Source: Nitrospirota bacterium
GTDB taxonomy: Bacteria > Nitrospirota > UBA9217
Assembly: GCA_963663225.1 (NCBI GenBank)
Contig: OY760142.1
Coordinates: 384,001-448,000, forward strand
Length of the DNA stretch: 64,000 nucleotides
Direction of reading: 5' to 3'
The position numbers were made by a program, and so were the translations under genes. Shown here in pieces: positions 6,852 to 59,639 of this stretch (positions within the stretch are counted from its first letter, which is position 1; the number at the start of each line of letters is the position of its first letter). The notes under the pieces were generated by a model. That model did no database searches and was not told where the DNA came from. It worked only from the letters and a program-made list of their open reading frames with translations.

Positions 6852-9413
6852 TCAACCGGTATGGTCAGCATTATTCAATATTTCTCGAATCTTTGAAGAA
6901 AAATCGTAGATAGAAAACGGCTTCTGAATAAAATCAACACCCTTCTCAACCACACCCTGGTGAGTGATTATATCAGCCGTGTAGCCGGACATAAAAAGAC
7001 ACTTGAGGTTCGGATGCACGGACAAGAGCCGTCCGGACAGCTCTTTTCCATTCATCTCAGGCATCACGACGTCGGTTATAAGCATCTGAATTCCACCGGT
7101 ATGCGCTTCCGCCAGGCGGAGGGCTTCGCTTGGGATGCTCGCAGTCAGAACCGTGTATCCCAGCGCTTCAAGTATTGTTTTGCCAAGGTTCAAAAGACTG
7201 GCATCGTCCTCAACCAGAAGAATGGTTTCGGTTCCGCCGACGGCAATTTGCTTTATTCCTGCCTGCCCCTGCAACGTTTTGCTTGTGTCCCTGGGAAGGT
7301 AAATCGCAAAGCTCGTCCCCTTGCCTGGCTCGCTGTAGACATTTATGAACCCTTTATTTTGCTTCACAATGCCGTAGACCGTTGAAAGTCCCAGACCTGT
7401 TCCCAGACCCACGCCCTTGGTCGTAAAAAACGGTTCAAATATTCTGGACTGCGTTTCCTTATCCATGCCGCTGCCGCTATCAGTAATGGTGAGTTTCACA
7501 TAATCCCCGGGTGCGGCATCCGGGTTATGGACACGATATCCTTCATCAACTGCGGCAATTTCCGTCTGAATAGTGATCTTCCCGACTCCAGCAATGGCGT
7601 CCCGGGCATTGACGCACAGATTCGCCAATATCTGGTCAACCTGGCTAGGGTCCATTTTTACCTGGACCAGACCTGCACCGGGCCGCCAAATCAGTGTAAT
7701 ATCCTCGCCGATAAGCCGCCTCAGCATTTTGAGTATTCCTTCCACCACCTCGTTTACGTCGAGTATCTTTGGAACAATTGTCTGCCTGCGGGCAAAGGCC
7801 AGCAACTGGCGGGTAAGTCCAGCAGAATGCTCGGCCGCCTTGCGGATTTCATGCAGCTTATCAAACAGGGGATCGCGAGGGTCCATATCGGCAAGAATCA
7901 TCTCTGCATGGCCGATAATGATTCCGAGCATATTGTTGAAATCGTGGGCCACTCCTCCCGCAAGGCGTCCAACTGACTCCAGTTTCTGCACCTGGTTTAA
8001 TTGCTCCTGGAGCTTCAAACGTTCATTCTCGCTCTGTTTGCGCTCGGTGATGTCCTCGGTAAAAATGACAATTCCGCCGACCTGCTTCTCCGATGTCCAC
8101 CAGGGATGAATTTCCCAGCGAAGCAGCTGAATTGACCCGTCCGCGCGTTCGAACGGGTCTCCATCGGCTTGCACCACTTCTCCGTTAAGGCCCCTTCGGT
8201 GAGCTTGTTTCCAGCGGTCGGGAATTTCAGGAAAAATATCATAGTGCGACTGTCCCAGCAGATCGCGGTCGCCCAGCTTGTAATCGGAACGCCAGCGGTT
8301 GCTTACCGCGATATAGCGCATCTCCGAATCAAACATAGCCAGCGAGGCAGGGGCATATTCGATAAATAGTTGCAACCGTTCCCTGCTTTCGTGCAGCAAT
8401 GCTTCCGCGCGTTTTCGTTCGGTTATGTCGGTGTGCGTGCCGGTCATTCTCAGCGCACGGCCTTTCTCGTCACGTTTCGATATCTTGCCGCGGGTGAGAA
8501 CCCAAAGATATTTTCCTGATTTGGTTTTGAGGCGCTGTTCGATGCGAAAGAGAGTCGAGCGCCCGCTCAAGTGGTCATTCAGGGCCTTTGTAGTGGCAGG
8601 GAGATCGTCCGGATGGACTCTCTGGCGCCAGGAAGTCACGTCAGTAAGAAACTCCGTTTCCCGGTATCCGAACATTTCATAGCCGCGAGGGCTCAGGAAA
8701 ATGGCATTGGTATTGAGGTCCACGTCCCAGATCGCATCATTGGCTCCTTCCATGGCGAACTTGAGCCGTTCTTCACTGGCTTGCAGGCCAGCCACTGCGC
8801 GGTTCCGCGCCTCTGTGACGCGGAAGACGGTAATACCCAGCGTCGCAAGCAGCACGGCGGCTATGCTGAGCGCAAGAGTGAACCGATGATCGAGGCGGGT
8901 TGATAACTCCCTCAGCTGGCGTTGCGATGCGGCATCAAGGAGACTTGCTTCGCGTTCCAATGCACTGAATGCAATCCGCAGCGACACTGCCTGCTTTGAT
9001 GCAGGCGCTTTCGCTTTCCTCCACTCATCCAAACTACTCCGAAACTTGTTGACGTTTTTGCGAAAAGTAGCAGCGGCTGTTACGTCAGTGAATTCAAGAT
9101 TGGCAAGAGCGCGTTCGAATGAACTGACCGACTGCTGCAGTAACGCCACCCCTTGTTCCCGGTCAAAGGGAGAGCCCGCATCATTGGCAAGACTCGTATG
9201 GAGGAATCCCTGTTCCAATTCTATCAGGGCCTGTCGGATATTTCCCAGATTGGCCGCAGCGTGCCGGAGTTCCTGGCGATACTGATAATGCAGCCAAATC
9301 ACCAGAATGAACACGAGCAAGCACAGAAGCATGGTCCCCCATGTCCACCAGCGATAATCGGAAAATCTTCGGGGACGGACTGATGCTTCAATATCAACGC
9401 CGTGCGTTGTCAT
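6852..9413 (-). CDS. Membrane hybrid histidine kinase (2 TM, 2 PAS, HisKA, HATPase, REC)
   Basis: LAGGVAHDFNN H-box; NLCVNARDA; FEPFFTTKG.G.GTGLGL; REC LLVEDD...ITDVVMP. Confidence 0.95.
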   Translation of the reverse strand: MTTHGVDIEASVRPRRFSDYRWWTWGTMLLCLLVFILVIWLHYQYRQELRHAAANLGNIRQALIELEQGFLHTSLANDAGSPFDREQGVALLQQSVSSFERALANLEFTDVTAAATFRKNVNKFRSSLDEWRKAKAPASKQAVSLRIAFSALEREASLLDAASQRQLRELSTRLDHRFTLALSIAAVLLATLGITVFRVTEARNRAVAGLQASEERLKFAMEGANDAIWDVDLNTNAIFLSPRGYEMFGYRETEFLTDVTSWRQRVHPDDLPATTKALNDHLSGRSTLFRIEQRLKTKSGKYLWVLTRGKISKRDEKGRALRMTGTHTDITERKRAEALLHESRERLQLFIEYAPASLAMFDSEMRYIAVSNRWRSDYKLGDRDLLGQSHYDIFPEIPDRWKQAHRRGLNGEVVQADGDPFERADGSIQLLRWEIHPWWTSEKQVGGIVIFTEDITERKQSENERLKLQEQLNQVQKLESVGRLAGGVAHDFNNMLGIIIGHAEMILADMDPRDPLFDKLHEIRKAAEHSAGLTRQLLAFARRQTIVPKILDVNEVVEGILKMLRRLIGEDITLIWRPGAGLVQVKMDPSQVDQILANLCVNARDAIAGVGKITIQTEIAAVDEGYRVHNPDAAPGDYVKLTITDSGSGMDKETQSRIFEPFFTTKGVGLGTGLGLSTVYGIVKQNKGFINVYSEPGKGTSFAIYLPRDTSKTLQGQAGIKQIAVGGTETILLVEDDASLLNLGKTILEALGYTVLTASIPSEALRLAEAHTGGIQMLITDVVMPEMNGKELSGRLLSVHPNLKCLFMSGYTADIITHQGVVEKGVDFIQKPFSIYDFSSKIREILNNADHTG

Positions 9414-20919: not shown

Positions 20920-22125
20920 CTATTTCAGTTCGGTTTTAAACATCTTTCTGGCCGCGGCCAGCCGATCATCGAGATCAGGCCCCTCCAGTTCAGCGGAAAC
21001 CTTCTGAAGGAAATCAGGAATGTTTACGTTCTGCGGGCACTTCTCCAGGCACGAACCGCACGCGCTGCACTCTGATGCGAATCCCGCCTCTCCGTTGCTC
21101 AACATGCCGCTCGCCGAAATAGTATAAAGAAATTTCGCTTCTTCCACGTTGCCGAACATATGCATTTTATTGTACAGGTCAAAGCACTTTGGAATCTGAA
21201 CGCCTGATGGACAGGGCATGCAATATCCGCAGCCTGTACATCCTATCGGCATCAACTCAAGATATCTTCGGCTTACGCGGTCTACCAGCGCCAACTCTTC
21301 TTTGGACAGGGAGTTTGGATGCGCCTCATCAGCGATGGCCAGATTTTGCTTGATATGAGCCTCCTCATTCATACCGGAGAGAACCACGGTCACCTCCGGA
21401 TGGTTCCACACCCAGCGAAGAGCCCACTCCACAGGGGAACGTCTGATCCTGGCCAAATTCCAGATGTCCGCGATGGCGGGAGGCGGCGTGGGGAGACTGA
21501 GATTTCCTCCCCGCAAAGGTTCCATGACTATCACGCCCAGATTCCTGGCAGCGGCATATTTCAGGCCTTCGATCCCAGCCTGAAATTTCTGGTCGAGATA
21601 ATTGTACTGTATCTGACAAAAAATCCAGGGATACTCATCAACAATGCGCTTGAAATCCACCAGTTCCCCGTGAAAGGAAAAACCAGCATTAACGATGCGG
21701 CCATCTTGCTGCGCTTTCTCTAGAAAATCAAAGATGCCGTGCGTCTTCACCGTATCCCATAAAGCGCCATCAAGCGCATGAACAAGATAATAATCGATTT
21801 GATCAATTCCCAGTTTTTCCATTTGCGTGGCCAGGTAGCGGTCCATGTCGCCGCGGCCGTTAATTATCCACGAAGGCAGCTTGGTTGCCACCTTGACCCT
21901 GTCACGGTACCTGTCTTTCAAGGCTTTTCCGAGCAACGGTTCGCTTTCGCCCCCATGGTACGGCCATGCGGTATCAACGTAGTTTACACCGTTATCGATT
22001 GCGTAGCGTATCTGGTTGATCGCTCTTTCTTCATCGATCTTTCCCGCTTTCATGGGAAGCCTCATACAGCCGAATCCAAGTATGGAAAGTGAATCTCCGT
22101 TTTTCGGTACTGTTCTGTATTGCAT
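20920..22125 (-). CDS. Aldo/keto reductase with C-terminal 4Fe-4S domain
   Basis: LGFGCMRLP, NYVDTAWPYHGGESE, GFSFH, MEPLRGG; CTGCGYCMPCP and CSACGSCLEKCP. Confidence 0.93.
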   Translation of the reverse strand: MQYRTVPKNGDSLSILGFGCMRLPMKAGKIDEERAINQIRYAIDNGVNYVDTAWPYHGGESEPLLGKALKDRYRDRVKVATKLPSWIINGRGDMDRYLATQMEKLGIDQIDYYLVHALDGALWDTVKTHGIFDFLEKAQQDGRIVNAGFSFHGELVDFKRIVDEYPWIFCQIQYNYLDQKFQAGIEGLKYAAARNLGVIVMEPLRGGNLSLPTPPPAIADIWNLARIRRSPVEWALRWVWNHPEVTVVLSGMNEEAHIKQNLAIADEAHPNSLSKEELALVDRVSRRYLELMPIGCTGCGYCMPCPSGVQIPKCFDLYNKMHMFGNVEEAKFLYTISASGMLSNGEAGFASECSACGSCLEKCPQNVNIPDFLQKVSAELEGPDLDDRLAAARKMFKTELK

Positions 22126-22202
22126 GTTTTTTCTCCTGTTTTTCATGTCCTTGAGTGAAGAACAAATACGACCACCGGCATACGTAAGCTTCCAGCAGCC
22201 CG

Positions 22203-22508
22203 CTATGCTTCCGTTAGCACCTTAAGGGTGCGTTCCTCGACCAGGTCTTTTACTTTGTCCCGGTACGTCAGCATATGAGGCGCTTTAAGATGCCGGTGGA
22301 GCGCTTCGAGGCTTTCCCATTTTTCGATAATCGTAATCAGTTGCGGGTCGAGTCCTTGCGTCGGCAGCTTCGAGTCGATATCGGCTGTCGGCATGTATTC
22401 CAGACATCCCTTCTCAGCCCTGACTGTAGGCACATTGGCCTTGCATATTTCCAGAAATTCCGGTATTTTTCCGGATTTAATGCGGATTGATGCAATAACA
22501 CTGATCAT
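22203..22508 (-). CDS. Putative quinol monooxygenase (ABM family)
   Basis: VRAEKGCLEY...IEKWESLEAL..HL.APHM; AAGGAG RBS. Confidence 0.88.
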   Translation of the reverse strand: MISVIASIRIKSGKIPEFLEICKANVPTVRAEKGCLEYMPTADIDSKLPTQGLDPQLITIIEKWESLEALHRHLKAPHMLTYRDKVKDLVEERTLKVLTEA

Positions 22509-24676: not shown

Positions 24677-25750
24677 TTATTTTTCCTTCTTGAATTGCCT
24701 GCGGATGTCCTCATAATATTTTTTAGCGCAATCCGGACATAAGCCATGCGTAAATTCAGCTTCGGATTTATCGGAAATATAGGCTTCAATCTGGCTCCAA
24801 TAGCCCTTGTCATCCTTTATTTTTTTGCAGGATGCGCAGATAGGCAACAAGCCGCTTAATTGTTTCACCTTGGCAAGCGATTCCTGAAGTTCATGAACAA
24901 GCTTTTCGCGCTGTTCTTCCGCTTTTTTGCGTTCTGATATTTCTTCCAGCAACTTTGTATTTGAGTTCTCCAGTTCTGACGCGGCCAGCTGCAGGGCGGT
25001 TTCTCTTCGGTGCAGTTGTCGTCCCGCAAAAAATAAACCGGCAAGCCCTACACACCACAGCAAAAAATGGCCACTGGACAATCCGGTGATTCTGGATTGT
25101 TCAATGGCTCTCAGGGGCCCCATGGGGACGGAAGCGCTTATGCCTCCTCGAATATTTCCTTCTTGATACCCCTGGTGCGCATGACACGGAAGACATGATT
25201 TTTCGGTCACCAACGGGCGCATCAACCGCATGTATTCCCTGTTGTCGATCAAATCAAGGGAATATACTTCTTTCTTCCCCTGCGCAAATTCCACAAGAGC
25301 TTTTGTTTCCCAGCTGTCTGCCTTGTTTTCCGGACGGATAGGGTTCAAGCTCGTAATATGTCCGAGGATGCCCTGTTCCTGCTGCAGCAGTTCGTGGGAT
25401 TGGCGTGTCATGTACGCCGGATTTATCATGGTCAGCTTCCGGCCTGATTGTGTCGTAACGTCACGTTCAGGAATATCTGTTAGATAAGGATTACCCGGGG
25501 TATTCCTGGTCCGCGGTACGTATACCCCGCCATGCAGAGCGTTCCAGCGGCGGTAAATCACATCTTTCGTGAAAGCCACCCGCGCTTCGATAATCGCAAG
25601 CTCAAGAATCTGCCGCTTCAGATGGAGTATGTTCCATGCCGCAGAAAATACAATTATCACAGTCCATACCGCTGACAGTATCCAGAGATACCGTTTTATC
25701 TCAAATGAGTACTTGCTCTTCTTTTTATCAAGAAGCATCAGCCGCCTCAT
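24677..25750 (-). CDS. DUF3365 (Tll0287-like) c-type heme sensor with coiled coil and C-terminal four-Cys module
   Basis: RRWNALHGGVYV, NPAYMTRQ, TSLNPIRPEN..D.WE, CLPCH heme motif, GGIS; tail LLPICASCKKI...W..IE.Y....FTHGLCPDC. Confidence 0.85.
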   Translation of the reverse strand: MRRLMLLDKKKSKYSFEIKRYLWILSAVWTVIIVFSAAWNILHLKRQILELAIIEARVAFTKDVIYRRWNALHGGVYVPRTRNTPGNPYLTDIPERDVTTQSGRKLTMINPAYMTRQSHELLQQEQGILGHITSLNPIRPENKADSWETKALVEFAQGKKEVYSLDLIDNREYMRLMRPLVTEKSCLPCHAHQGYQEGNIRGGISASVPMGPLRAIEQSRITGLSSGHFLLWCVGLAGLFFAGRQLHRRETALQLAASELENSNTKLLEEISERKKAEEQREKLVHELQESLAKVKQLSGLLPICASCKKIKDDKGYWSQIEAYISDKSEAEFTHGLCPDCAKKYYEDIRRQFKKEK

Positions 25751-25935: not shown

Positions 25936-25964
25936 TTGCCCTCTTTTTTTCTTTATGTTATGAT
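25936..25964 (+). promoter_or_regulatory. Candidate sigma70 promoter for the B12 radical SAM gene
   Basis: TTGCCC-N17-TATGAT with extended -10 TG, about 40 nt upstream of the ATG. Confidence 0.5.
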
Positions 25965-26004
25965 GAACAAACATTGCCAGTAAGACATCGTTTGGGAGAA
26001 TTTT

Positions 26005-27837
26005 ATGATACGAGTGGTCCTCAATGTTTTGCCGCCCTCGAGAATCGACACCCCTTCTGCCGCGTTATCCACACTCAAGTCATTCCTGAAGCACCATGCG
26101 ATTGATGCAACGATTGTTTATTGGAACATTCTTCTTGACCGGCTCCTTCCCTCTTTTGAAAGAAATACCGACGAGACCCATTTCGAGTTGCTTCCATACC
26201 TCTACCTGATTTCTGATACGTATCAGGACGAAATCAAGAAGAGCAAAGCAAATGCCGTAATGAAAGCACAGCTGCCGTTCTCCGATATTCTAAACGACCG
26301 GAGCGATTTTTTTGCCCGGGCCAACGATATCCTGGAAGCTGCGTTTTCAACAGAATTTTCCCAGGAGATATATGCCGGTCAAATGCTTTTCGGAATATCC
26401 TGCAAATATGAGCAATGGATTCCCGGCATAATCCTCGCGAACCACCTAAAAAAACGTTTCCCTCATGCAAAAACCGTGATTGGAGGACTCAGAAACCGGG
26501 ACAAAGCAGAAGCTGTCATGAAAATATGCGGCGATTTCGATTTTGCCATATGGGGAGAGGGAGAATATCCGCTCTTGACGCTTTGCCGGGCTCTCGATAA
26601 AAAGACAGACGAATTTACGTCCGTCCCACGGTTGATCTTTCGCGAAAACGGTACCCTATTGTCTTCAGACACGGACGCAAGTGATTTCTCCGACATGAAC
26701 GACAGAATATTTCCTGACTATGATGATTACTTCCGCTGTCTCGAAACGTCGCGCAGAAAGAACTTTCCCGTTATCCTCCCTCTTGAATCCAGCCGGGGGT
26801 GCACCTGGAACGCGTGCAAATTCTGCGTTTACGCAGAAGGGTACAGGTGCAGAAAAAAGGATCCGGCAGTATTGGAAGAGGAAATTAGGCATCTGCTGGG
26901 CAAATACAAGACACCATATTTTGCCTTCATGGACAACGATATCGTGGCGAATGACCACGCAAGGCTCGACAAAATTCTTGACGCTCTCATTGCGATAAAA
27001 AAGGACTGCAATATTCACTTCATCGCCGAAGTGATACCTAAAAATTTTACCGCAGCAACCATGAAAAAACTTTCCCAGGCGGGACTGAACAGGATTCATT
27101 TCGGCTATGAGGCGCTTGCGAACTCGTTGCTGAAGAAGCTCGGGAAAAAGACCAACTTTTCGGACAATCTGCTTTTTGTCAAACTGGCGCTCAAATACCT
27201 AATCAAGCTTCCGTCGGCAAACATCATATGCGGCGCCGTGGGCGAGGAAGATCACGATATTCTTGAAAGCATCGACAATTTGCACTTTTTAAGGTTTTAC
27301 TTTGACAAAAACTTTTTCGTCCATAATATCATCCCCCTGCGTGTTGCCCAGCATTCCGATTTTTACAACCTGATCCCGAAGGAAACCCTCCTCAAATGGA
27401 ACGCGAATCCGATTTTCCACTTATTGCCGGATGACATGCTGGAGGGCATTGACCGTTTTTCGCTCTTCGATTTCAGCGCTGAACAGAATTTCATGTGGGA
27501 AATGTTTACAAAGATAAACACCTTTTACTATAATCACAACTATCGCTATAGCATTTCACGACAGGACGGTGCCATCATCTATAGCGAATACTTCGACGGT
27601 GATCTGGCCACACGGTTCGGGCTAAGCGACTTGGAATATCAGATCCTGCTGGAAACCAATTCAAACATACTGAATTGGAAGGAGCTAATCGGAGGTTTTC
27701 GGCTGAGGAACAATGTTCCGGTGGATGAATGTGCGGTGCGCATTGCTCTTGATCGTTTGAAAGAAAAACATTTAATCTATTTTGGCGACAACTATCATGC
27801 AATCATATCAGTCATTGACACCGATCAAACCTTTTGA
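26005..27837 (+). CDS. Cobalamin-binding radical SAM enzyme (RiPP-maturation C-methyltransferase type)
   Basis: PSAALSTLKSFL...VYWN N-terminus, VIGG and GEGE B12-domain motifs, PDYDDY, ESSRGCTWNACKFC cluster motif, FMDN, GYEAL; helical wHTH-like C-terminus. Confidence 0.88.
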   Translation: MIRVVLNVLPPSRIDTPSAALSTLKSFLKHHAIDATIVYWNILLDRLLPSFERNTDETHFELLPYLYLISDTYQDEIKKSKANAVMKAQLPFSDILNDRSDFFARANDILEAAFSTEFSQEIYAGQMLFGISCKYEQWIPGIILANHLKKRFPHAKTVIGGLRNRDKAEAVMKICGDFDFAIWGEGEYPLLTLCRALDKKTDEFTSVPRLIFRENGTLLSSDTDASDFSDMNDRIFPDYDDYFRCLETSRRKNFPVILPLESSRGCTWNACKFCVYAEGYRCRKKDPAVLEEEIRHLLGKYKTPYFAFMDNDIVANDHARLDKILDALIAIKKDCNIHFIAEVIPKNFTAATMKKLSQAGLNRIHFGYEALANSLLKKLGKKTNFSDNLLFVKLALKYLIKLPSANIICGAVGEEDHDILESIDNLHFLRFYFDKNFFVHNIIPLRVAQHSDFYNLIPKETLLKWNANPIFHLLPDDMLEGIDRFSLFDFSAEQNFMWEMFTKINTFYYNHNYRYSISRQDGAIIYSEYFDGDLATRFGLSDLEYQILLETNSNILNWKELIGGFRLRNNVPVDECAVRIALDRLKEKHLIYFGDNYHAIISVIDTDQTF

Positions 27838-29180
27838 AGATAAAAATTCTTGATCGGCCTGCTAAGCACAAAGAACAGCGCCAGCACCGAATATATGATG
27901 AAAATGAAAAAAAAGATCAATAATATGTTTTTGTTCAATAGATCAATAACAATGCCGCTTCCTGCCAGAGAAAGAGGAACGAGGCCACCGTTGATTGAAT
28001 CCAGCGTTCCAAAAACCCTCCCCCGCAGCTCTTCGGGAATCACTTTTTGTTTGATCGACGTATTGATCAGACGCGAAACCGCCATGCATACGGAAATGAG
28101 TGAAAGCAGCCCGAACACAAGGTAGACATTCATGGAAAACGAAAGAAATAAAAATAATATCGCTTCAAGAATGAATACTCCGCATATCACTATATAATTT
28201 TGTTTTTCCGTTGTCTTCAGCATACCGTAGACAAAATACCCCGCGATGGAACTCATCGTCAGAATGCTTAGGAGATATCCGTAGTAGGCTTCCCCAAGCT
28301 TCATCACATCTTCAACAAGAAAAGGCAGCATTATCATCACGGCCGGAAAAAACAGATTGGACAGTGTGTAAACGATCGTCTGGTTCCTCAAGCCCTTGTT
28401 CGCCCAGATAAAAAGGAGTCCTTCTTTAACATCCTTGATAAAGCTTCGATACGAAGTTGAATATCTTTTCTCTGAGTCCTTCTGCTCCAGAGTGATGAAC
28501 AAACTCGAAAATGCCGCAGACAGATACGTTATGCCGTTCAGCAGGAACGCCAGGGTCCCTCCAAAAGCGCTGAAGAATACTCCACCCAGCGCGTTGCCGA
28601 TCATTGCCAGCAAACCGCTCGAACCCTGCAGCAAGGAATTGCCCTTCTGGATTTTGTCAATCTTGAGAATGAGCGGAATGATTGAGTAGAGGGCGGCGTT
28701 GAAAGCCGAGTCGATGATCCCCATGCACAGGGTCACGCAGAACACGATATAGAGCGTGAAGGGAAACGACGAGGAAAAATGAAATTGCGCCACTCCGATA
28801 TCGATCATCTTCAGGCCGAAAAAGTAATCCAGGCTGAATATGAACAGCAGAACCATAAGAATGCTTCGAAGAAAATAACTCCAGATGATCACTGTTTTTC
28901 TGGATGTTTTGTCGACCAGCGTCCCAGCAAATGGACCCAGCAGCACCCATGGAAGGAACGCCAGCAGTTCCACAACGCCGATGATGGTTGCCGACCCGGT
29001 TATTTTCTTCAGGTACAGGACAAGGACAACATAATAGAGCGTGCTGCCGAAAAACGCGGCGCTCTGGCCGGCGAAGAAGAGGGTGAAATTCCTGTTGAAC
29101 AATCTGTCGGAAGGCTTGGTCAAGGTATCTATACGCGTTTTTAAAGTCCGTTTCGTTATTTTTTGATGAATGTACCGCAC
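27825..29180 (-). CDS. MFS exporter (DHA3/macrolide-efflux-like); start uncertain
   Basis: LFNRNF...GQ, GPFAGTLVDK.SRK, KEGL.FI, PEELRGRVFG; overlaps the 3' end of the rSAM gene. Confidence 0.9.
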   Translation of the reverse strand: MRYIHQKITKRTLKTRIDTLTKPSDRLFNRNFTLFFAGQSAAFFGSTLYYVVLVLYLKKITGSATIIGVVELLAFLPWVLLGPFAGTLVDKTSRKTVIIWSYFLRSILMVLLFIFSLDYFFGLKMIDIGVAQFHFSSSFPFTLYIVFCVTLCMGIIDSAFNAALYSIIPLILKIDKIQKGNSLLQGSSGLLAMIGNALGGVFFSAFGGTLAFLLNGITYLSAAFSSLFITLEQKDSEKRYSTSYRSFIKDVKEGLLFIWANKGLRNQTIVYTLSNLFFPAVMIMLPFLVEDVMKLGEAYYGYLLSILTMSSIAGYFVYGMLKTTEKQNYIVICGVFILEAILFLFLSFSMNVYLVFGLLSLISVCMAVSRLINTSIKQKVIPEELRGRVFGTLDSINGGLVPLSLAGSGIVIDLLNKNILLIFFFIFIIYSVLALFFVLSRPIKNFYLQKV

Positions 29181-30340
29181 GTACGCGGAACATCAGCGGG
29201 ATGCGCCAGTTTGTGCTCGATGAATCGTTTCGCAATCAATTCGGTGATTTCGACGTTCTTGTCCATCAGCGCGCGCAGTGTCACCTGCGAAGTGCAGAAT
29301 GATCCCATGAAATTCGTGTCCGTCACCGGCGACAACGCGCAGTATTCTCCACAAATGGGCAGTGCGCTGCATTTTGTGCAGGTATCATTGTAGTATGAAT
29401 TCGGCGTCTCGCACAGTTCGATGGCTTTCGCCGCCCCGTCTAGGTAGGCAGGCAGGTCTTTTGCTTTCGCGATGGGGCCGGTTATACCGGCAAAAAAGCT
29501 GCATGGATAAATATATCCGTCCGCGGCTACATAGGCCGAAAAAAGACCTGCCCTGCACATCTGTGGCTTCGGCAAAGCGTGATAGTCAGAATTGCACAGA
29601 ACATTATTGTGATACAGGTGGAACTTGTTCAAAATAATGGTCTCTCGCGTGTTGAAATCAAACTGCGAAGCCAGAAATGCTGACTCGAACTCCGATTCAG
29701 CTCTGAGCATCGGCGGAATCTGCGAAGCCTGATGCCCCCTTCCCTCGCTCGAAACATAATTAACGCGGTAAAACCGAATCCCTTGTTTGTTGAAGAATTT
29801 GATGGTGGACGGCAGTATCCGCAGAGACTCCACGGTACCCACGACGAGCGCCGATATTTTAAATCCGTTTTCGGACAACGTAACGATATTGTCCCGTCTT
29901 TTTGCCGAAAGCAATCCCGGGTCAGGCAGTTCCCCGTCATAATGAATTGAAAAGTGCACGTTGTATTTTTTGAACAGATCTATGATCGCGGGTGGCAGGA
30001 TTGAGATGTTCGTCTGAACCGAGTACTCGAGTGCCTGGCCGGTTCTTTCCAGGTAGCGGTCCACCGCCTTAAAAAACGTTTCATACCATTTGACCGATAC
30101 CAGCAGGGGTTCTCCGCCGGAAAATACCACCACGCCCAGTTTTCCGTTGCTTAACTGCAGGAGCTTGATGACTGTTTCGGCTGTTTCCAGCGGATCTACT
30201 ATTTCTTCCTTTTCACCTTTCGGTGTTGCGGAAACGTTGCAGGCATCCTGGAAACAATATTCGCATGAAAGGTTACAGCCTGTAATAAGCTGGAACGTCA
30301 CACTGTTGAGATCTGCGAACGTGGGGGTAATCGTTGTCAT
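29156..30340 (-). CDS. Radical SAM/SPASM peptide-maturase-like enzyme
   Basis: CNLSCEYC, FSGGEPLL, QTN; complete SPASM pattern C-x12-G-x4-C ... CxxC-x5-C-x3-C ... C; AAGGA RBS. Confidence 0.92.
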   Translation of the reverse strand: MTTITPTFADLNSVTFQLITGCNLSCEYCFQDACNVSATPKGEKEEIVDPLETAETVIKLLQLSNGKLGVVVFSGGEPLLVSVKWYETFFKAVDRYLERTGQALEYSVQTNISILPPAIIDLFKKYNVHFSIHYDGELPDPGLLSAKRRDNIVTLSENGFKISALVVGTVESLRILPSTIKFFNKQGIRFYRVNYVSSEGRGHQASQIPPMLRAESEFESAFLASQFDFNTRETIILNKFHLYHNNVLCNSDYHALPKPQMCRAGLFSAYVAADGYIYPCSFFAGITGPIAKAKDLPAYLDGAAKAIELCETPNSYYNDTCTKCSALPICGEYCALSPVTDTNFMGSFCTSQVTLRALMDKNVEITELIAKRFIEHKLAHPADVPRTCGTFIKK

Positions 30341-30385
30341 TTGGTAATATCCTTACTTGTTTACGGAGTGGAAACGGCATGCAGA

Positions 30386-30423
30386 CCTGCTACGATATTA
30401 TCCTTTGATAACACCGCAGCAGG
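30386..30423 (-). promoter_or_regulatory. 17-bp RNA hairpin between precursor and maturase
   Basis: Minus strand CCTGCTGCGGTGTTATC-aaag-GATAATATCGTAGCAGG pairs fully with three G-U wobbles (A-C mismatches on plus); no U-tail. Confidence 0.7.
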
Positions 30424-30445
30424 GGATTCTTTGAAAAACGTGGGT

Positions 30446-30643
30446 TTACTTGTTGGGGCAATAATTGGCGTAAGCACAGCAGCAGCCGCATTCCGACTCG
30501 ATTGATGCCGTCGCAGGCCTTCGCAGCGTGCTCAACATGTCGCCGAGTACTTCTTTCGATGCGTTCCACTCCGTTGCCACATACTGCTCTGCCAGATGTT
30601 CGGGTACATCATAAATGCGTCCAGACTTGTTCATCAATAACAT
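30446..30643 (-). CDS. Putative RiPP precursor peptide (65 aa, Cys/Tyr-rich C-terminal core)
   Basis: GAGGAGG RBS, own promoter, directly upstream of rSAM/SPASM; ends ESECGCCCAYANYCPNK. Confidence 0.85.
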   Translation of the reverse strand: MLLMNKSGRIYDVPEHLAEQYVATEWNASKEVLGDMLSTLRRPATASIESECGCCCAYANYCPNK

Positions 30644-30702
30644 ACTGTCCTCCTCATATAGTAGTCGTATGCTTGGGTTATTTTGCCGTTTTCTTCTTTT
30701 AC

Positions 30703-30731
30703 ACTCTAAAACTTTCCCGCCTTGTTGTCAA
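30703..30731 (-). promoter_or_regulatory. Sigma70 promoter of the precursor operon
   Basis: TTGACA-N17-TAGAGT on the minus strand, about 60 nt upstream of the ATG. Confidence 0.7.
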
Positions 30732-33850: not shown

Positions 33851-35107
33851 ATGCGAAAGCTTTTTTTAGGCACCTTGTTTCTGGCACTGGCAACAATGGT
33901 ATTGTGTGTAGCATCCAACGGTTATTGCAAAACGGACACAGCTACACCAAAGCTCATCAAAAAATCCGACAAGGGGAAACTATATGCCCTTAACGGCGTA
34001 AAAATGCTGGTTTTGTCCGGCACGTTTAACGAGATGGGCCGCCAGTATGGTGCATTGCTCGGCAGCGAAATCTCCGGGCTTTATGAAACGGCAATCGAGA
34101 AATCCTTTATTAAAAACGGACTGTTTTCACAAGAAGAACTTTACGGGTTTGCGGCAAGCATTTTTAAGACCCTGCCCATGAGACAGAAGGAACTTATCCG
34201 GGGGATATCATCAGCAAGCGGTCTCAAGCAGGAAAAAGTCATTTTGGCCGCAAATATAGTTACGGTTCAGATATTAGCGCGCAAAAAGTTCGGCGGCAAC
34301 ACAAACGCCTGCACCTCACTTGCGGTCTGGGGAAAATATACTGATGATGAGAAGACCTTGACGGCAAGAAACTACGATTTCCCACACATTTTTCGTGAAA
34401 TGGCAAAAGAGTATGCGGTAATTATCGTCTTTAAACCATCTGACGGATCAAATGCGGTTGCCGGGATCGGCTTTGCAGGAACCATTTCTTTTATCGACGC
34501 GCTGAATGACAAAGGAATTTATATTGAGGCCAACAACGCGGCGGATTCGGCCGGATTGGTCATGTTTAACGCGAGAACGGAAGCGACGACACAGGTTGTG
34601 AATATTCTTTTTGACGCAACCGACAGTGAGGAATTCAACAGCTTGATGAACAGCACCCGATTCAGCTACTCTGCCATTCTTATGGCGGCTGACAGCAGCA
34701 CGGCGCGGTATTACGAGATCGCCAGTTGGGATATTCACAAAAGAGATTCCGCGGGCGTCCCGATAATCGCCGCCGGGAACCAGTTTAACGACCCGGCATG
34801 GGGCATTCTGTCGCTGCCGAGTCCTGCAGCATGGTATTCCTCTTTAAGGGAAAGCAATCTTATAAATCTGGCGAAAAACCGGCATGCCGCTGTTGACGCA
34901 AAACACATGATGTCCATACTGGACGCACCGTTTTATAACGAAGATGGAACTGTCGGCAAAGGTGTATCTGTTTTAAAGAAAAACCCCAAGGATGATGAGG
35001 TCACGGTCTGGCAGGTTGTTACGCATCCGGCAAGTCTGGAGATGTGGGTACGGTTTCCTATGCTGAGCGACTGGATCTTTATTGATCTAAAAAAATGGTT
35101 TCATTAA
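33851..35107 (+). CDS. Secreted C45-family Ntn hydrolase/peptidase
   Basis: Signal peptide; LSGTF.EMGRQYG; autoprocessing site ACTSLAVWG; ARNYDF; ALNDKGI. Confidence 0.88.
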   Translation: MRKLFLGTLFLALATMVLCVASNGYCKTDTATPKLIKKSDKGKLYALNGVKMLVLSGTFNEMGRQYGALLGSEISGLYETAIEKSFIKNGLFSQEELYGFAASIFKTLPMRQKELIRGISSASGLKQEKVILAANIVTVQILARKKFGGNTNACTSLAVWGKYTDDEKTLTARNYDFPHIFREMAKEYAVIIVFKPSDGSNAVAGIGFAGTISFIDALNDKGIYIEANNAADSAGLVMFNARTEATTQVVNILFDATDSEEFNSLMNSTRFSYSAILMAADSSTARYYEIASWDIHKRDSAGVPIIAAGNQFNDPAWGILSLPSPAAWYSSLRESNLINLAKNRHAAVDAKHMMSILDAPFYNEDGTVGKGVSVLKKNPKDDEVTVWQVVTHPASLEMWVRFPMLSDWIFIDLKKWFH

Positions 35108-50589: not shown

Positions 50590-52299
50590 TCAGAATTTTT
50601 CGAACTCAGCATCCCTTGAATCTCCATTACTCTTAGGCATGCTGATTACGGCGCCTGCTGGTTGAATTTGAGCTCGAGCTGGCACTTTTATACCAGTATC
50701 AGCTATTTTGACAATTTCCTTGTTCGTACTGGTAATGATAGATGTATCTTCTATTTTTTTTCTAGCCCCTAATTTCAGCTTTTTGTCGGCAGCATTGTCG
50801 ATATTAAAAAAAGAAATCGTATTCAACAACTGTTCCGATTGAGAAGAAAGTTCTTCTGCCGTAGACGCCATTTCCTCAGCCGCACCGGCATTTTGTTGTA
50901 TCACTTGATTTAACTGCTGTATAGCAGAATTAATCTGATCCGAACCGCTCGATTGCTCCTTTGATGCAGCATTTATTTCTTGCACAAGTTCAGCCGTTTT
51001 CTGAATATCCGGTACTAACTTTGTCAACATCTCACCAGCTTTTTCTGCGACTTCGACGCTGTTTGTAGACAGAGTACTGATTTCAGCTGCGGCCACTTGG
51101 CTACGTTCTGCTAGTTTTCTGACCTCCGATGCAACGACTGCAAACCCCTTTCCATGTTCTCCTGCTCTGGCCGCTTCTATGGCGGCATTCAACGCCAGTA
51201 GATTCGTCTGACGAGCTATTTCTTCGATGATTGCTATCTTGCTGGCTATATTCTTCATTGCTTCCACTGTTTCTGACACAGCCTTGCCGCTTTCCTTGGC
51301 ATCTTCTGCGCTTTTTAATGCTATCTTTTCAGTCTGTTGTGCATTTTCAGAATTCTGCTTGATCGTTGCGTTCATTTCTTCTACTGAAGATGAAGCCTCT
51401 TCCGCTGCAGCTGCTTGCTCAGTTGTACCTTGGGACATTTGTTCAGAACCTGCTGAAAGTTGTTGACTGCCAGAGGCTACATTATCGGCTGCAGTCTTTA
51501 CATCAGTCGTCACCAGTTTCAGCTTATCGACCATATCATTCATCGCGGCTGATAGTTGACCTATTTCATCTTTTCGTGCTATATCTATTTTTTGCATAAG
51601 ATCGCCCTTGGCGACAGCACTCGCGAAATCAACTCCCTTCTTAAGCGGTGCACTGATCATTCGGGATATAAAAACTCCTAATACAACAGCAACAATCAGA
51701 CCGACAAGAGTAACGGCTATTATTGTTTTCGTGACGAAACTTGATAACGCGGCATCAGCCTCTTTTGCTTGGCTTCCAACTTTTCGCTTCATATCAACCA
51801 TTTTAGCTATAGCATCATTCTCGGCTTTCGCGAGAGCAACAACTTCTCCGTTCATAAGTGCGTATGCTTCTGCTTTTTTCCCGTCCAAGGCGAGCCCTTC
51901 TAGCCTTTCGAATACAGGAGCATAATTACCTCTGGCATGAACGTATTCGTCAAATATTGCTTGACCTTCTTTAGTCAAAATAGTTTTTTGAAAACTATCT
52001 GATGCCTTAGTCATTGCATCCCTGTTGGCTTGCAGCTTGTCTCTTAGTTTTTTCCTCTCCTCTGACGTGTTTGCCTGAACCAAATCCCGCACATTAACTC
52101 TCAACATCTGGAATTCCGTTGATATAGTGACCAAGTCGCTTATTGGTACGGTAACGTGTGTGTATAACCTATCTCCTGAATCTTCCAATTTTTTTATGTT
52201 AATTACTCCAATCACACCAATCAATGTTCCGATCAAGGCAACTGCAATAAAACCGCCCAAAAGCTTAACACTTACTTTCATATTTTCGAACCACTTCAC
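50590..52299 (-). CDS. Methyl-accepting chemotaxis protein (4HB sensor, HAMP)
   Basis: Two TMs, [41 protein letters not shown]-terminal pentapeptide EFEKF; GAGGAGG RBS with GTG start. Confidence 0.96.
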
Positions 52300-52644
52300 G
52301 ATATACCTCCTCTGAAATATTGTTTAATCAATGATATAAAGAACGACTTTTCAATTTTTAGTACCGATATGCCACCTCCCCTCGTTGACAGAGTCTTTTC
52401 GTGCTTTGTTAACGCTGCAAGATTAAATACCGAGCATCAAATTCAGCATCTTTAATACGAGCAGCCTTTCCATCACGCATTATACGTTCATAAATAATTC
52501 AAGTTTTTAAAGACATCTAGCGTTAATCATGTCAACTAAATAATCAGGTTATACTCGTCATCATTTTATAAATATCGTCGAGGTAATCTTCCTTGATATC
52601 TCAAATCATTAAGAGCGATGTTTTTATTTGTATGATTTTGAATA

Positions 52645-53010
52645 TCATCTTACAAACCTTTTTACCACATCCATAAGCTGCTCAGGTTTAAAGGGTTTAA
52701 CGACCCAACCGCTTACTCCGACATTCCTGGCTTCTAACTTTTTTTCTTCCTGAGATTCGGTAGTCAACATGACAATTGGCATAAACTTGTGGGCTACCAT
52801 GCCTCGGACTTGCTTAATGAGGGCGATCCCGTCCATCTCGGGCATATTTAAATCGGTAATTATCATATCAATTTTGGTGTTATCCAATTTTGTAATTGCA
52901 TCTTTTCCACTATCTGCCATGACAACATCATAACCTGCGTCTTTAAGCGCAAAATTTACAAGCTGCCTCATAGAAGCCGAATCATCAACGACTAAAAAAG
53001 TTTTCGACAT
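52645..53010 (-). CDS. cheY: Chemotaxis response regulator CheY
   Basis: LVVDDS, ITDLNMPEMDG, MLTTES, GWVVKPF. Confidence 0.93.
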   Translation of the reverse strand: MSKTFLVVDDSASMRQLVNFALKDAGYDVVMADSGKDAITKLDNTKIDMIITDLNMPEMDGIALIKQVRGMVAHKFMPIVMLTTESQEEKKLEARNVGVSGWVVKPFKPEQLMDVVKRFVR

Positions 53011-53032
53011 ATTGCCTTTCTCCGTTATCCCT

Positions 53033-54184
53033 TTACGACTCTGCAAGTGTTCTATTCATAACAGATCGTTCCGATTCCATGGTGTACAAATCTCTTAGCC
53101 AAAACGCCGAGTCATTGACACTTCGATCAGAAGACTGAAATCGAACTGCCGTCAGCTTTTTAACCATTTTCTCAGAATCTTCCCTGAATTTAGTTAGCGC
53201 CTCGATTACATGTTCAATGCGTTGTTTTGTAATATCTTGAAACTGCATTGAAACAACGATATCGCTGATATCCTTTGCAAGATTTTTTGTCTCCGTTGTA
53301 AGCTCATTTAATTTCATCTGCGTATCTTTAATGGCGTCATTAATTCTAGTTAAGGCGTCTTCAACCGCCAGATCAGCTTCTGCCACGCGCTTACTGCTGG
53401 AAGTGACTCCGAATTCGCTTTTTTGCAATGCAATTTTCAAATCACTACCAATTTTAATTATCGTATTTCTAATCCGATTTGCAGCATCGTTTGAGCGTTC
53501 AGACAATTTTCGTACTTCTTCCGCAACAACACCAAATCCTTTGCCAGAATCTCCTGCTCGTGCTGCCTCTATGGCTGCATTTAAAGCCAGAAGATTTGTT
53601 TGTTGTGCAATATATTCTATATCTGTTACAATCTCGCAAATTTCTTCTGCATCATCCGTCATGACTTTCATGTTCTGCATCGTTTCTGCAGTTATCACCT
53701 TTATTTCTTCCATATCCCTAAGAACTTTTTTGAATGCTTTTTTCGCAACTTCTATAAATGCGCCCTCTTTCGCTGTTCCAACAAAAATGCTGAATGCATC
53801 AGAAGCCTTTGATGCATGGCTCCGTGCTCGCTCCACCATATTCATAAATTTCCCACCCATATCTAGAGCGGCTTGTTCTGTCTGCGAGGAAACCTCTTTA
53901 AGTTGATTCGCTAAAACTGGTACTAATTGATTCCTATCTTTAAGATGATAGGCAATGGGATGTACGACCTGTATCAATTCATCAAACATTTCTTTTTGCT
54001 CTTTTTTAAGTCTTCCTTCTACGTCTTTCAAAATTTTTTTTATTTTCACATAAGCAATACACATAAATCCGCAGGTTACAGTTACAAGTACGATTAACCG
54101 TAACAGCCTATGCTCGATTAAGGACATTAATGCAATGGATAGTAAAATTAAAAATGCATAAATCATAGGTTGAAGTTTAGTCAT
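53033..54184 (-). CDS. Short MCP-like protein with C-terminal QFQD..KQ (CheZ-like) motif
   Basis: [20 protein letters not shown] hairpin tip; [14 protein letters not shown]; YTMESER tail. Confidence 0.85.
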
Positions 54185-54249
54185 AGATAAAAAATTCCTC
54201 TTTCTATATTATTGACGCACGATGCAGCCGATTTTATCAATTGAGTCTT

Positions 54250-54276
54250 TTATCGGTATCGATTTTTTTAACTTTA
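54250..54276 (-). promoter_or_regulatory. Sigma28 (FliA) promoter for the chemotaxis cassette
   Basis: TAAA-N15-ACCGATAA, one mismatch to TAAA-N15-GCCGATAA, about 65 nt upstream of the MCP-like gene. Confidence 0.75.
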
Positions 54277-54428
54277 GTTTTTGGATTAAATATTAGTATT
54301 TAAATACTTTTTTGAAGGAAAACTTGATTAGCCGTGTAGGGACAACTTATACATATTGTAAGGAATATTTGATAGCGGGTCAGAGTTGATGATTGTCTTG
54401 AAAGATATTAATTTAATAATCTAGGCAA

Positions 54429-55109
54429 CTAGAGTTGAAACAAACTAACTAACGTACCAATGGATACTAAGCTATGCTCTATGGCAAACTTGATTAGCCC
54501 CGGGATACCTTTGACACCTAATTTTTTCATCATGCGACTGCGATAGGTTTCGACGGTTTTTTGTGAAATTGAAAGTTTCTTCGCAATTTCAGCATTTGTG
54601 TCTTCTTTGACCACAAGTCTAAGAATTTCTTTTTCACGAAAGCTGAGCCGGCTGACCGGGCTAACGTCAGCATAGCCCTCTGGAACAGAAATATGTGTTT
54701 CGATTATTTTGTCAGCTATTTTTTTACTGAGATAGCGCTTGCCAGCAAAGACTTCTCTTAGCGCTAAAATTAGTTCAGCGCTAGATGATTCTTTCGATAA
54801 AAGTCCATTTGCTCCTGCCCGAAGTGTTTGAGAAATGTATTCACTAGAATCATATGCAGAAAATACTATAACTTTTATTAAAGGGTATTTTCTCTTCAAC
54901 AAGCGTGTGGTTTCTATTCCATTTAAACGAGGCATTACTATGTCCATAATGATAATATCTGGTATAGTCGGGCAAAGTTTATTTACCATTTCTATGACTT
55001 CACTACCATCTGATGCCTCTCCCACTATCTTTATATCTCGCTCAGCGCCTAAGAGCAGCCGCAAGCCTTCCCGAACAACAGCATGATCATCTACAATTAT
55101 TATATCCAT
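54429..55109 (-). CDS. NarL/LuxR-family response regulator
   Basis: IVDDHAVVREGL, IMDIVMP, LS.REKEIL, NAEIA..LSIS.KTVETYRSRMMKKL. Confidence 0.93.
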   Translation of the reverse strand: MDIIIVDDHAVVREGLRLLLGAERDIKIVGEASDGSEVIEMVNKLCPTIPDIIIMDIVMPRLNGIETTRLLKRKYPLIKVIVFSAYDSSEYISQTLRAGANGLLSKESSSAELILALREVFAGKRYLSKKIADKIIETHISVPEGYADVSPVSRLSFREKEILRLVVKEDTNAEIAKKLSISQKTVETYRSRMMKKLGVKGIPGLIKFAIEHSLVSIGTLVSLFQL

Positions 55110-55222
55110 AATTATCAATGTCCCGTTTATTCTAAAGAATAGTTGTTTTTCGAGAACAAATACTTTTATATTCTGCATAAAGAACGACTTACGCTAAACA
55201 AATGATAAAATATAGGAGAACT

Positions 55223-57619: not shown

Positions 57620-57728
57620 AAACCACTCTCTTGTTTTCCTATTTTGATTAAATTAGGAATAAGATAATAGCAATCTACCCAACGTTATCGTCCAATCGTT
57701 TTGCCAGCAATCTTTGCAAAATATCTAT

Positions 57729-57749
57729 ATAGTTGGTAATACCAACTAT
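57729..57749. promoter_or_regulatory. Perfect palindrome, candidate MarR-type operator
   Basis: ATAGTTGGTA-a-TACCAACTAT (10-1-10) between the MarR stop and the kinase start. Confidence 0.55.
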
Positions 57750-57764
57750 TATGCCAAAAAAAAA

Positions 57765-58196
57765 TTACTTTATTAAATTTTCGTGAGCTTTATGTAAGAC
57801 CTTATTGCATATTTCCATTTCTTGCTCTGTAATCCCTCTCCGCAACTGCTGAAAGATCTTTTCCGCCAAAATTATTACTCCATGTATTACGCTCTCACCT
57901 CGCTTCGTAATATAAATGATTTTTTCTCGGCCATCCAAGGAGTTTTTCTTGCGGAGTATAAGTTTTTGAGATTCTAAGCCAACCGCAAGATGAGCCATTG
58001 TTGTTTTATCTTTGAACAGCTTCTGAGCGAGCTCCCACTGCGATTGACCGTTTTGCTCCCATACCTGAACTAGAACCGATATGTGCTCAGCCGTAATTTT
58101 GTAGCTATGTTGTGTCAATTCTTGGTTTAACTTCTTCTGAAAAGCCCTTGATAAAAGAGTTGCCTGAATAGTAATCGATCCTTTAGTTGTATACAT
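57765..58196 (-). CDS. MarR-family transcriptional regulator
   Basis: IT.E...VL...W...G.SQ.ELA....KDKTT, DGREKIIYITKRG. Confidence 0.9.
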   Translation of the reverse strand: MYTTKGSITIQATLLSRAFQKKLNQELTQHSYKITAEHISVLVQVWEQNGQSQWELAQKLFKDKTTMAHLAVGLESQKLILRKKNSLDGREKIIYITKRGESVIHGVIILAEKIFQQLRRGITEQEMEICNKVLHKAHENLIK

Positions 58197-58603
58197 TAAA
58201 TATACCTTTTTGTGCAGTTTTATGCAACAAAAAATTGCAAAAAATCACCTCGCAACATACTGATTTTATGGAGATAACTCAGGTATTTCGCTAAAAGTAT
58301 CTATTTATTTAACATTCGAGACACTTAAGCTTTTTCTGAATATTACCTGCTTTTTTACTCCAAAAGCTGTTCGCTAAATTTCTGTCCATCTGGGGTTCAA
58401 TTTAATTGGGGAAAAAATGAAGATAAGGTACGATAAAAAAGTTTAAATTCGCGAAATTATACACTTAAGGTGTGCATAACAAAAGGGCTTTTTTTTGATA
58501 TGTTTTCAATTTTAATAATCGGCTTCAAATAAGATAATACGGCTTTCTAGTCATTTACTTGTCATGTACTAATATCTACGCTGAAGGAGGCCTTAACCGC
58601 AAA

Positions 58604-59251: not shown

Positions 59252-59279
59252 GATAATCTCCTACTATATAAATACCATA

Positions 59280-59318
59280 AATAAAAATCCCCAATCTTCA
59301 TAATCAAGATTGGGGATT
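59280..59318 (-). terminator. Intrinsic terminator between riboswitch and GntR gene (likely expression platform)
   Basis: AATCCCCAATCTT-gattatg-AAGATTGGGGATT then TTTATTT on the minus strand. Confidence 0.8.
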
Positions 59319-59374
59319 AATCGACAAAAACGTTAATCCACACAACATCTCAACGCCGAAGAGTGTGTGAAAAC

Positions 59375-59540
59375 ATAAAGGCCGGTCTTCTGGCTTTCCC
59401 TTCTCTACTTACCTTCCCAGCCTTGTTCCAAGCCAGTGATAAGAGCATAGCAGAGAACTTTGATCCCCTACTGCGGGATCGGGATTACAGCGGCGGGTCC
59501 GCTCCCGATTCTCACGGGATTCCCATAACCTAAATGTCGT
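59375..59540 (-). ncRNA. Cobalamin riboswitch
   Basis: Minus strand AGGTTATGGGAA-TCCCGTGAGAATCGGGA-GCGGACCCGCCGCTGTAA...CACTGG...CTGGGAAGGT...AAGCCAGAAGACCGGCC (B12 box), elements in canonical order. Confidence 0.92.
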
Positions 59541-59556
59541 AAAACATATTTATAAT

Positions 59557-59585
59557 TTTATAACATAAAACGGCTCAAAAGTCAA
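59557..59585 (-). promoter_or_regulatory. Sigma70 promoter upstream of the riboswitch
   Basis: TTGACT-N17-TATAAA with extended -10 TG. Confidence 0.6.
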
Positions 59586-59639
59586 AGAATTCTCTCTCGA
59601 CTGAAAAGAATGATTTGACGCTTGCTGGTATTTTTCGCG

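Follow-up and report, generated by a model that had tools for sequence, protein, structure and literature searches.

What do four adjacent genes, one for a peptide of only 65 amino acids and two for radical S-adenosylmethionine (SAM) enzymes of different classes, make in an uncultured anaerobic bacterium? They occupy about 4.8 kb of a 64,000-nucleotide stretch (the window) from a Nitrospirota bacterium (assembly GCA_963663225.1, contig OY760142.1, positions 384,001 to 448,000). The six-frame list of open reading frames (ORFs) gives the precursor peptide, a radical SAM/SPASM enzyme, a putative exporter of the major facilitator superfamily (MFS) and, converging on these, a B12-type (cobalamin) radical SAM enzyme (Table 1). 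A first-pass annotation, made from the letters alone, had read this cassette as a candidate novel cluster for a peptide that is made by ribosomes and modified after translation (RiPP). Our follow-up supports that reading: the adjacency of the peptide, the linkage of the B12-type enzyme and the absence of a match to a described family all favour it. We put the probability that the cassette is a laterally mobile unit for a ribosomally made, radical-SAM-modified peptide at roughly three in four. It represents a real and so far undescribed radical SAM RiPP family, whose product would be crosslinked, methylated and exported. The arrangement is repeated in about 20 other genomes of anaerobes, and the cassette probably makes an undescribed modified peptide. 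It belongs to the known radical-SAM-modified RiPPs; new are the precursor family, a SPASM enzyme without a RiPP recognition element (RRE), a divergent subfamily of B12-type enzymes and a conserved hairpin behind the precursor gene. Radical SAM RiPPs are a main source of new peptide chemistry, and here two classes of radical SAM enzyme would work on a single core that is very short and hardly varies. Moreover, the carriers are uncultured anaerobes, a group with almost no natural products known, and the system is small and hence directly testable.

The precursor peptide and its linked genes

A genome set with a single representative for each species was scanned with the SPASM alignment; this gave 20 loci, which were then searched with the window proteins by tblastn. 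They come from Syntrophorhabdus, Syntrophus, Smithellaceae, Desulfobacterales, Syntrophobacter and NC10. The first-pass annotation had staked its reading on a similar peptide standing beside orthologous radical SAM genes, and such a peptide immediately precedes the SPASM gene in 19 of the 20 loci; in the remaining one (L018) the contig ends 236 nt upstream. The MFS gene follows the SPASM gene directly in 14 loci, and in two others (L008 and L014) a contig edge falls where it would follow. The B12-type gene converges on the MFS gene in 12 loci, that is in 12 of the 14 with an MFS gene; in L015 it is cut by the contig end. Across 10 loci the identity to the window falls jointly for the four genes (Spearman 0.65–0.70), and clustering of the ORFs revealed no other gene family in more than five loci.

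The cassette is rare. The window genome, a single 3.26-Mb contig, holds one copy, and an orthologue of the SPASM enzyme was found in one of five other genomes of the same genus, in none of 19 others of the same family, in none of 16 of the same phylum and in none among a sample of 400 further genomes of the phylum to which a Syntrophus-labelled locus (G041) belongs. The nearest relatives outside the genus are metagenome-assembled genomes of Syntrophus and Smithellaceae; L001, the same-genus locus, is labelled Nitrospiraceae. This rare, patchy occurrence across phyla with the gene set intact suggests that the cassette has been transferred laterally as a unit.

The peptide is divided into a leader (residues 1–45), a variable linker (46–52) and a Cys-rich core (53–64), with mean column conservation of 0.78, 0.52 and 0.83, respectively. 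Judged by the alignment, these zones fit the leader-linker-core pattern of a precursor with an unusually fixed core. A word-indexed search returned 38 clusters of homologues, all of 50–106 amino acids, and a profile search among 1.84 billion representatives, with 13 matches in total, added six more distant full-length peptides. Residues N5, G8, Y11, D12, P14, E31 and L37 are invariant in the alignment, and G53, C54, C55, N60, Y61, C62, P63 and N64 are nearly so. The leader motif G-x-I-Y-D-V-P-E and the core motif C-C-x4-N-[Y/W]-C-P are retained across phyla, and in the distant peptides G-x-I-Y-D-V-P and C-C-x4-N-[Y/W]-x-P are still present. Both motifs survive in NC10 peptides of about 32–34% overall identity (L019 and L020); the SPASM enzyme of the three NC10 loci is about 41% identical. 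Furthermore, an aromatic-x-Asn triplet occupies positions 58–60 in 36 of 38 peptides.

Compared with its nearest relative, L001, the precursor gene shows 15 synonymous and no non-synonymous differences, while the enzymes of that locus are just 79–90% identical to those of the window. Against L013, the proportions of synonymous and non-synonymous differences (pS and pN) are 0.74 and 0.13. Because synonymous changes outweigh non-synonymous ones in both comparisons, we conclude that the ORF is translated and under strong purifying selection. Since conservation is higher in the peptide than in its enzymes, the product may act on a fixed molecular target or bind a fixed ligand, for instance a metal, a receptor or a partner organism. 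The precursor reached the cutoff of no NCBIfam or Pfam model and matched none for SCIFF, SboA or PapA, in line with the first-pass view that it belongs to no recognised family; its matches in the ESM Atlas were all below 0.8.

Five of the 13 profile matches were rejected as spurious. They are long HEAT-repeat/NACHT proteins (P0239 and P0243–P0246) that align to the helical leader stretch (profile residues 23–49) in four to six repeats each, which we judged to be an artefact of helical repeats. The Smithellaceae locus L017 carries two tandem precursor copies (7283–7486 and 7526–7732) with slightly different linkers and cores, and the cores of NC10 peptides end in W-C-P-P-G in place of Y-C-P-N.

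The 105-nt spacer between the precursor and SPASM genes contains a hairpin, which the first-pass annotation had described as a stem of 17 bp. Folding reproduces 17 pairs, G-U pairs included, around a 4-nt loop (centroid energy −26.7 kcal/mol, z = −3.45), and none of 200 shuffled sequences folds as well. A stem of at least 13 pairs that starts 11–25 nt past the precursor stop is present in the window and in 12 of 19 loci examined; RNAfold hairpins also occur in L007 and L014, and U-rich tails follow the hairpin in L012–L014 and L016. The alignment of 13 hairpins has a 15-pair consensus with compensatory double changes in 12 of the 15 pairs (for example, column pair 10/37 is C-G in seven and U-A in six, and pair 12/35 is C-G in eight, G-C in three and U-A in two), a count that is biased toward structure because these hairpins were picked for folding. 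Despite this selection, the arms clearly share sequence with compensated differences. The hairpin is a probable attenuator or mRNA-stabilising element that would set a high ratio of precursor to enzyme.

Two radical SAM enzymes and a transporter

The SPASM enzyme carries the radical SAM motif C22-x3-C26-x2-C29 together with the complete seven-Cys SPASM motif that had been proposed for it (C262-x12-G-x4-C280; C321-x2-C324-x5-C330-x3-C334; C349). It is matched by PF04055 (41 bits) and by the SPASM model TIGR04085 (33.7 bits, over a cutoff of 27). Both Cys motifs and the adjacent precursor gene, conserved in 19 of 20 loci, point to a radical SAM/SPASM peptide maturase. However, its scores lie under every equivalog cutoff of NCBIfam: PapB (NF047865, 66 against 340 bits, aligned over residues 11–137 only, so that it is not counted as a PapB), anSME (TIGR03942, 60.5 against 349.45), TIGR04083 (59 against 300), CbpB (56 against 375), QhpD (55 against 453), the cyclophane-forming YhhB (53 against 445) and AmcB (52 bits). 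The maturases of SCIFF, mycofactocin and PQQ did not fit either. ScfB is absent among the 25 matches listed and a ScfB-related orphan model gave 38.6 against 855 bits; MftC and PqqE are absent among the SPASM matches listed, and no partner genes of these pathways are present in the cassette. Roughly 57 orthologues of the enzyme were collected. A profile of 32 orthologues searched against the PDB found anSME (4K37) as the best match, over the full length (residues 21–352 to 14–352, E 6.6e-16), and an unnamed 472-aa radical SAM protein (8VPO), ChlB and CteB (5WGG, E 6.3e-14) over the N-terminal half only. The ESM Atlas returned just generic radical SAM/SPASM clusters.

Only 21 residues precede the cluster motif of the SPASM enzyme, which therefore has no N-terminal RRE, and the profiles of RRE-bearing maturases align to it only from their positions 82–110 on. 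A PqqD-like gene was found neither in the cassette (Pfam) nor recurring in the related loci (ORF clustering), leaving the system without the RRE of sactipeptide and ranthipeptide pathways.

In its layout, the cassette resembles the sactipeptide and ranthipeptide systems (AlbA/SboA, CteB/SCIFF, PapB/freyrasin, NxxcB and QhpD/QhpC), the chemistry of which is summarised in PMC10114670: a Cys-rich precursor stands directly upstream of a radical SAM/SPASM enzyme with three-cluster Cys motifs, to which PapB, QhpD and CteB are weakly homologous. Unlike these systems, it has no N-terminal RRE, stays below the equivalog cutoffs, has a precursor unrelated to the SCIFF, SboA and PapA models, and contains a B12-type enzyme and an MFS protein in place of the usual ABC transporter and peptidase. 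With anSME the SPASM enzyme shares the size class (394 versus 370 aa), the missing RRE and two auxiliary-cluster motifs. In contrast to anSME, the putative substrate is an adjacent peptide gene and not a sulfatase, of which the cassette has none, and a transporter and a second radical SAM enzyme are added. Triceptides are built on an aromatic-X-X motif. Their maturases (XyeB, YhhB, AmcB, GrrM/OscB and FxsB) are weak matches of the SPASM enzyme at 29–53 bits, and the aromatic-x-Asn triplet of the core resembles that motif; however, no cutoff was attained, position 58 is not always aromatic, and the invariant Cys-Cys pair would have no role in cyclophane chemistry.

The 610-aa protein had been taken for a cobalamin-binding radical SAM enzyme. 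The motif quoted for it is present (ESSRGCTWNACKFC, residues 261–274) and its predicted fold agrees with that class; the cluster motif reads C-x4-C-x2-C and not the canonical C-x3-C-x2-C (window 26797–26826, residues 265–274). Each of the 48 homologues aligned has this spacing; their identities go as low as 32%, and they include Bacteroidota and archaeal-labelled members. The Pfam B12-binding match is sub-threshold (13 bits, cutoff 32). The best NCBIfam match is TIGR03975, a family of RiPP C-methyltransferases, at 164.1 bits against a cutoff of 281.85 and over profile positions 1–428 of 606, which is short of membership; many other B12-type radical SAM families match as well. An AlphaFold2 model with a predicted local distance difference test (pLDDT) value of 90 retrieved TsrM, OxsB, MgmA, CysS and TokK as the top Foldseek matches (E 5.5e-16 to 1.5e-12). 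The NCBIfam matches and this predicted fold place the protein among the class-B cobalamin radical SAM enzymes. Its C-terminal domain (about residues 513–608) is predicted to have the order beta3-alpha3-beta2 (pLDDT 82.7 for the isolated domain) and resembles winged-helix regulators weakly, best BlaI (E 9.2e-3, template modelling score 0.48). The modelled domain thus recalls an RRE or a winged helix and might, hypothetically, recognise the leader. A complex prediction of the enzyme with the peptide scored 0.00, which gives no verdict and counts neither way.

Known B12-type C-methyltransferases of RiPPs include PoyB/C of the proteusins and MpcB of the clavusporins. The window enzyme is like those of TIGR03975 in length (610 aa against a 606-position profile), in its N-terminal 430 residues and in its class-B fold. 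It is unlike them in its C-terminal 180 residues, which fall outside the profile, in its C-x4-C-x2-C motif and in having a SPASM partner; moreover, the cassette has no NHLP/Nif11 leader, S9 peptidase or DUF5825 partner. The clavusporin cluster (PMC10849626) likewise joins a B12-type radical SAM enzyme, an MFS transporter and a precursor. The reaction is leader-dependent there, and the authors postulate that the transporter exports a peptide of about 21 residues.

The transporter exceeds the Pfam gathering scores of PF07690 (96.2 bits) and PF05977 (68.8 bits), as expected of an MFS efflux protein, and scores 181 bits with TIGR00900, under its cutoff of 319.6. By these matches it appears to be of the EntS/Mef-like type (MFS_1/MFS_3, TIGR00900-like), which suggests a small exported product. 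Its ORF overlaps the SPASM stop by 25 nt, as had been noted in kind, provided that translation begins at GTG 29180; since alignments with homologues set in only at residue 9–24, the true start may lie downstream. The 13-nt convergent overlap with the B12-type gene (27825–27837) was confirmed as well.

Several loci vary this gene set. In L004 (10514–12330) the orthologue of the B12-type gene is in three pieces, either a frameshifted pseudogene or an assembly error, and peptide, SPASM and MFS genes are intact. In the NC10 loci L019 (8222–9937) and L020 (7340–8686), the MFS protein and the 610-aa enzyme are replaced by a co-directional 448-aa radical SAM protein with a B12-binding domain match and a CxxxCxxC motif, and in L018 (1415–2443) another radical SAM gene takes their place. 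A third, unclassified radical SAM protein (340–402 aa, CxxxCxxC at residue 9, Cys-rich C-terminus) is encoded directly upstream of the precursor in L003 (3349–4545), L005 (6324–7490), L006 (6382–7404) and L017 (5960–7168), with a fragment in L016 (3183–3578). It occurs in both MFS loci that lack the B12-type gene and may carry out tailoring either in place of the other enzymes or in addition to them.

Proposed pathway and competing explanations

From the gene content, linkage, selection, enzyme classes and RNA structure described above, we infer the following chemical steps, with leader removal, export and a biological role. One promoter would drive the precursor, SPASM and MFS genes as a single operon, and the hairpin past the precursor gene would attenuate read-through or stabilise a short transcript, so that precursor mRNA exceeds enzyme mRNA. 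The enzymes would recognise the conserved leader M-L-L-x-N-x-x-G-x-I-Y-D-V-P-E, and the SPASM enzyme would abstract a hydrogen atom in the core to form one or more intramolecular crosslinks. As crosslinks we favour thioethers that would link the two adjacent invariant Cys residues to the Asn/aromatic pair five to seven positions downstream, because conservation is highest at these four residues and enzymes of sacti- and ranthipeptides are among the best weak matches. An aromatic-x-Asn cyclophane is a real alternative, since the triplet is so widespread and cyclophane maturases score similarly. The cobalamin-type enzyme would then alkylate a core residue, most likely by C-methylation, which is the default for its nearest family. 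Finally, an unlinked protease would remove the leader and the EntS/Mef-like transporter would export the small product.

A number of observations weigh against a RiPP pathway of this form. No enzyme attains the cutoff of a characterised family, so that the reaction type cannot be transferred by homology. Most radical SAM maturases of RiPPs carry an N-terminal RRE, according to PMC10288494. The SPASM enzyme differs from them in this respect, and the C-terminal domain of the B12-type enzyme retrieved no PqqD or RRE entry in Foldseek and nothing in Pfam. As the first-pass annotation had already noted, the cluster holds no peptidase: none was found by Pfam and domain searches in the cassette or its flanks, and none recurs among the clustered ORFs of the related loci. 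L016 and L018–L020 have no MFS gene although downstream sequence is present, and L003 and L005, alone among the loci with an MFS gene, have no B12-type gene, so that neither gene is obligatory. In addition, position 58 is Leu or Val in two of 38 peptides (P0102 and P0105) and Cys62 is replaced by Gly or Thr in two (P0108 and P0240), which limits the choice of possible essential core residues.

It is possible, though rather improbable, that the peptide gives rise to a small functional molecule other than an antibiotic (for example a metallophore, redox cofactor or interspecies signal), carved from the core like PQQ, mycofactocin or methanobactin, with Cys-Cys and Cys/Tyr as ligands or redox centres and secretion by the EntS-like transporter. 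The core is near-invariant over three phylum-level groups, unlike the diversifying cores of bacteriocins, the transporter is of the EntS/MFS_3 type, and the cassette, its flanks and the related loci yielded neither an immunity gene nor an ABC transporter or C39 peptidase. The carriers also belong to syntrophic or anaerobic-digester lineages, as judged from record titles and from the labels of metagenome runs X5 and X6, which contain 0.37–0.39 of the sampled words. However, the cassette is so rare that the product is not a core cofactor, and the genes conserved alongside it include no uptake receptor, reductase or client enzyme. Moreover, such a molecule would differ from the modified peptide that we favour in the role of the product only; the biosynthetic logic is the same. 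A more specific proposal is more doubtful still. It holds that the cassette founds a new RiPP class, in which an anSME-like SPASM enzyme that has no RRE works together with a C-x4-C-x2-C cobalamin enzyme that has a C-terminal winged-helix peptide-binding domain, and the two build one strictly conserved product, possibly a nested bicyclic, C-methylated thioether (Cys-Cys to Asn-Tyr/Trp), that acts not as a bacteriocin but as a shared metallophore or interspecies signal and has spread by lateral transfer between syntrophs and other anaerobes living in digesters and sediments.

The remaining explanations are less probable. That the family has been described under another name, for instance in a supplementary dataset of a radical SAM RiPP atlas, seems unlikely. 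Large compendia exist whose supplementary datasets may list these enzymes, among them one with about 15,000 RRE-associated radical SAM proteins and a separate RiPP-RaS set, as stated in PMC10288494; but mining based on the RRE is expected to miss an enzyme without one. The peptide and the cassette are unnamed in the curated models (NCBIfam, Pfam), the source annotations and the literature searched, where nothing relevant was found, and the sources call the homologues only "hypothetical protein", "SPASM domain-containing protein" or "radical SAM protein". We regard it as very unlikely that the SPASM enzyme works like anSME, oxidising a peptide Cys (for example in Cys-Pro) to formylglycine or another product with no crosslink, to yield a small intracellular protein. 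The full-length profile match to 4K37, the TIGR03942 score, the missing RRE extension and the conserved C-P at the end of the core agree with such an activity. Yet that score is far under the anSME cutoff, the matches to thioether and cyclophane maturases are equally weak, and the core sequence C-P-N-[KRNT] does not fit the sulfatase motif C/S-x-P/A-x-R. No sulfatase domain was found with NCBIfam or Pfam, and an anSME-like role would leave the conserved transporter and second radical SAM enzyme unexplained. Slightly more improbable again is that the B12-type gene is an unrelated neighbour and the cassette comprises only the other three genes. It does lie on the opposite strand behind its own weak promoter-like site, and two MFS loci lack it. 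On the other hand, it converges at the same position in nearly all MFS loci across several orders, with identities falling in step, and two NC10 loci have another B12-domain radical SAM gene directly after the SPASM gene. Furthermore, the window and L001 retain it, although the remaining flanking genes are mostly different in every other locus.

Transcription signals, coordinates and flanking genes

The features listed by the first-pass annotation were recovered in place by the ORF list, sequence and motif reading, promoter scan and folding (Table 1). These include, on the minus strand, the promoter, the ribosome-binding site and the ORF of the peptide. The scan yielded 15 promoter-like sites in 5.8 kb, compared with 7.9 ± 2.3 in shuffled sequences, and the promoter match is by itself weak evidence for this reason.

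Table 1. Positions of the cassette genes and of candidate signals in the window.
Feature	Position	Strand	Basis or remark
Precursor peptide, 65 aa	30446..30643	-	ORF list; 38 homologue clusters
Radical SAM/SPASM enzyme, 394 aa	29156..30340	-	anSME-like architecture
MFS transporter, 451 aa	27825..29180	-	start codon uncertain
Class-B (cobalamin-type) radical SAM enzyme, 610 aa	26005..27837	+	profiles, predicted fold, motif
Sigma-70-like promoter TTGACA-N17-TAGAGT, upstream of precursor gene	30703..30731	-	10/12 consensus matches; consensus only
Shine-Dalgarno GAGGAGG	30649..30655	-	5 nt ahead of ATG at 30643; read in sequence
Stem-loop, 17 pairs, 22 nt past precursor stop	30386..30423	-	folding, covariation
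Weak promoter-like site TTGCCC-N17-TATGAT with TG, upstream of B12-type gene	25936..25964	+	9/12 matches

Four flanking genes were considered as cassette members and rejected, as none of them recurs outside the same-genus locus L001: those for a 131-aa secreted protein, a VWA/YfbK protein, a Tll0287-like sensor and a 418-aa protein (33851–35107). The sensor gene, beside the B12-type gene (24677–25750, minus strand), encodes a 357-aa protein in which a Tll0287-like (PF11845) domain is combined with a membrane segment and a coiled coil, and whose C-terminal tail is Cys-rich. Further away, an aldo/keto reductase fused to a 4Fe-4S dicluster domain (20920–22146, minus strand) adjoins a 101-aa ABM monooxygenase-like gene (22203–22508); the two are not linked to the cassette in other loci. 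The region 52000–60000 has a G+C content of 0.35–0.39 with strongly negative GC skew, compared with 0.45–0.50 elsewhere in the window, and may be a foreign island.

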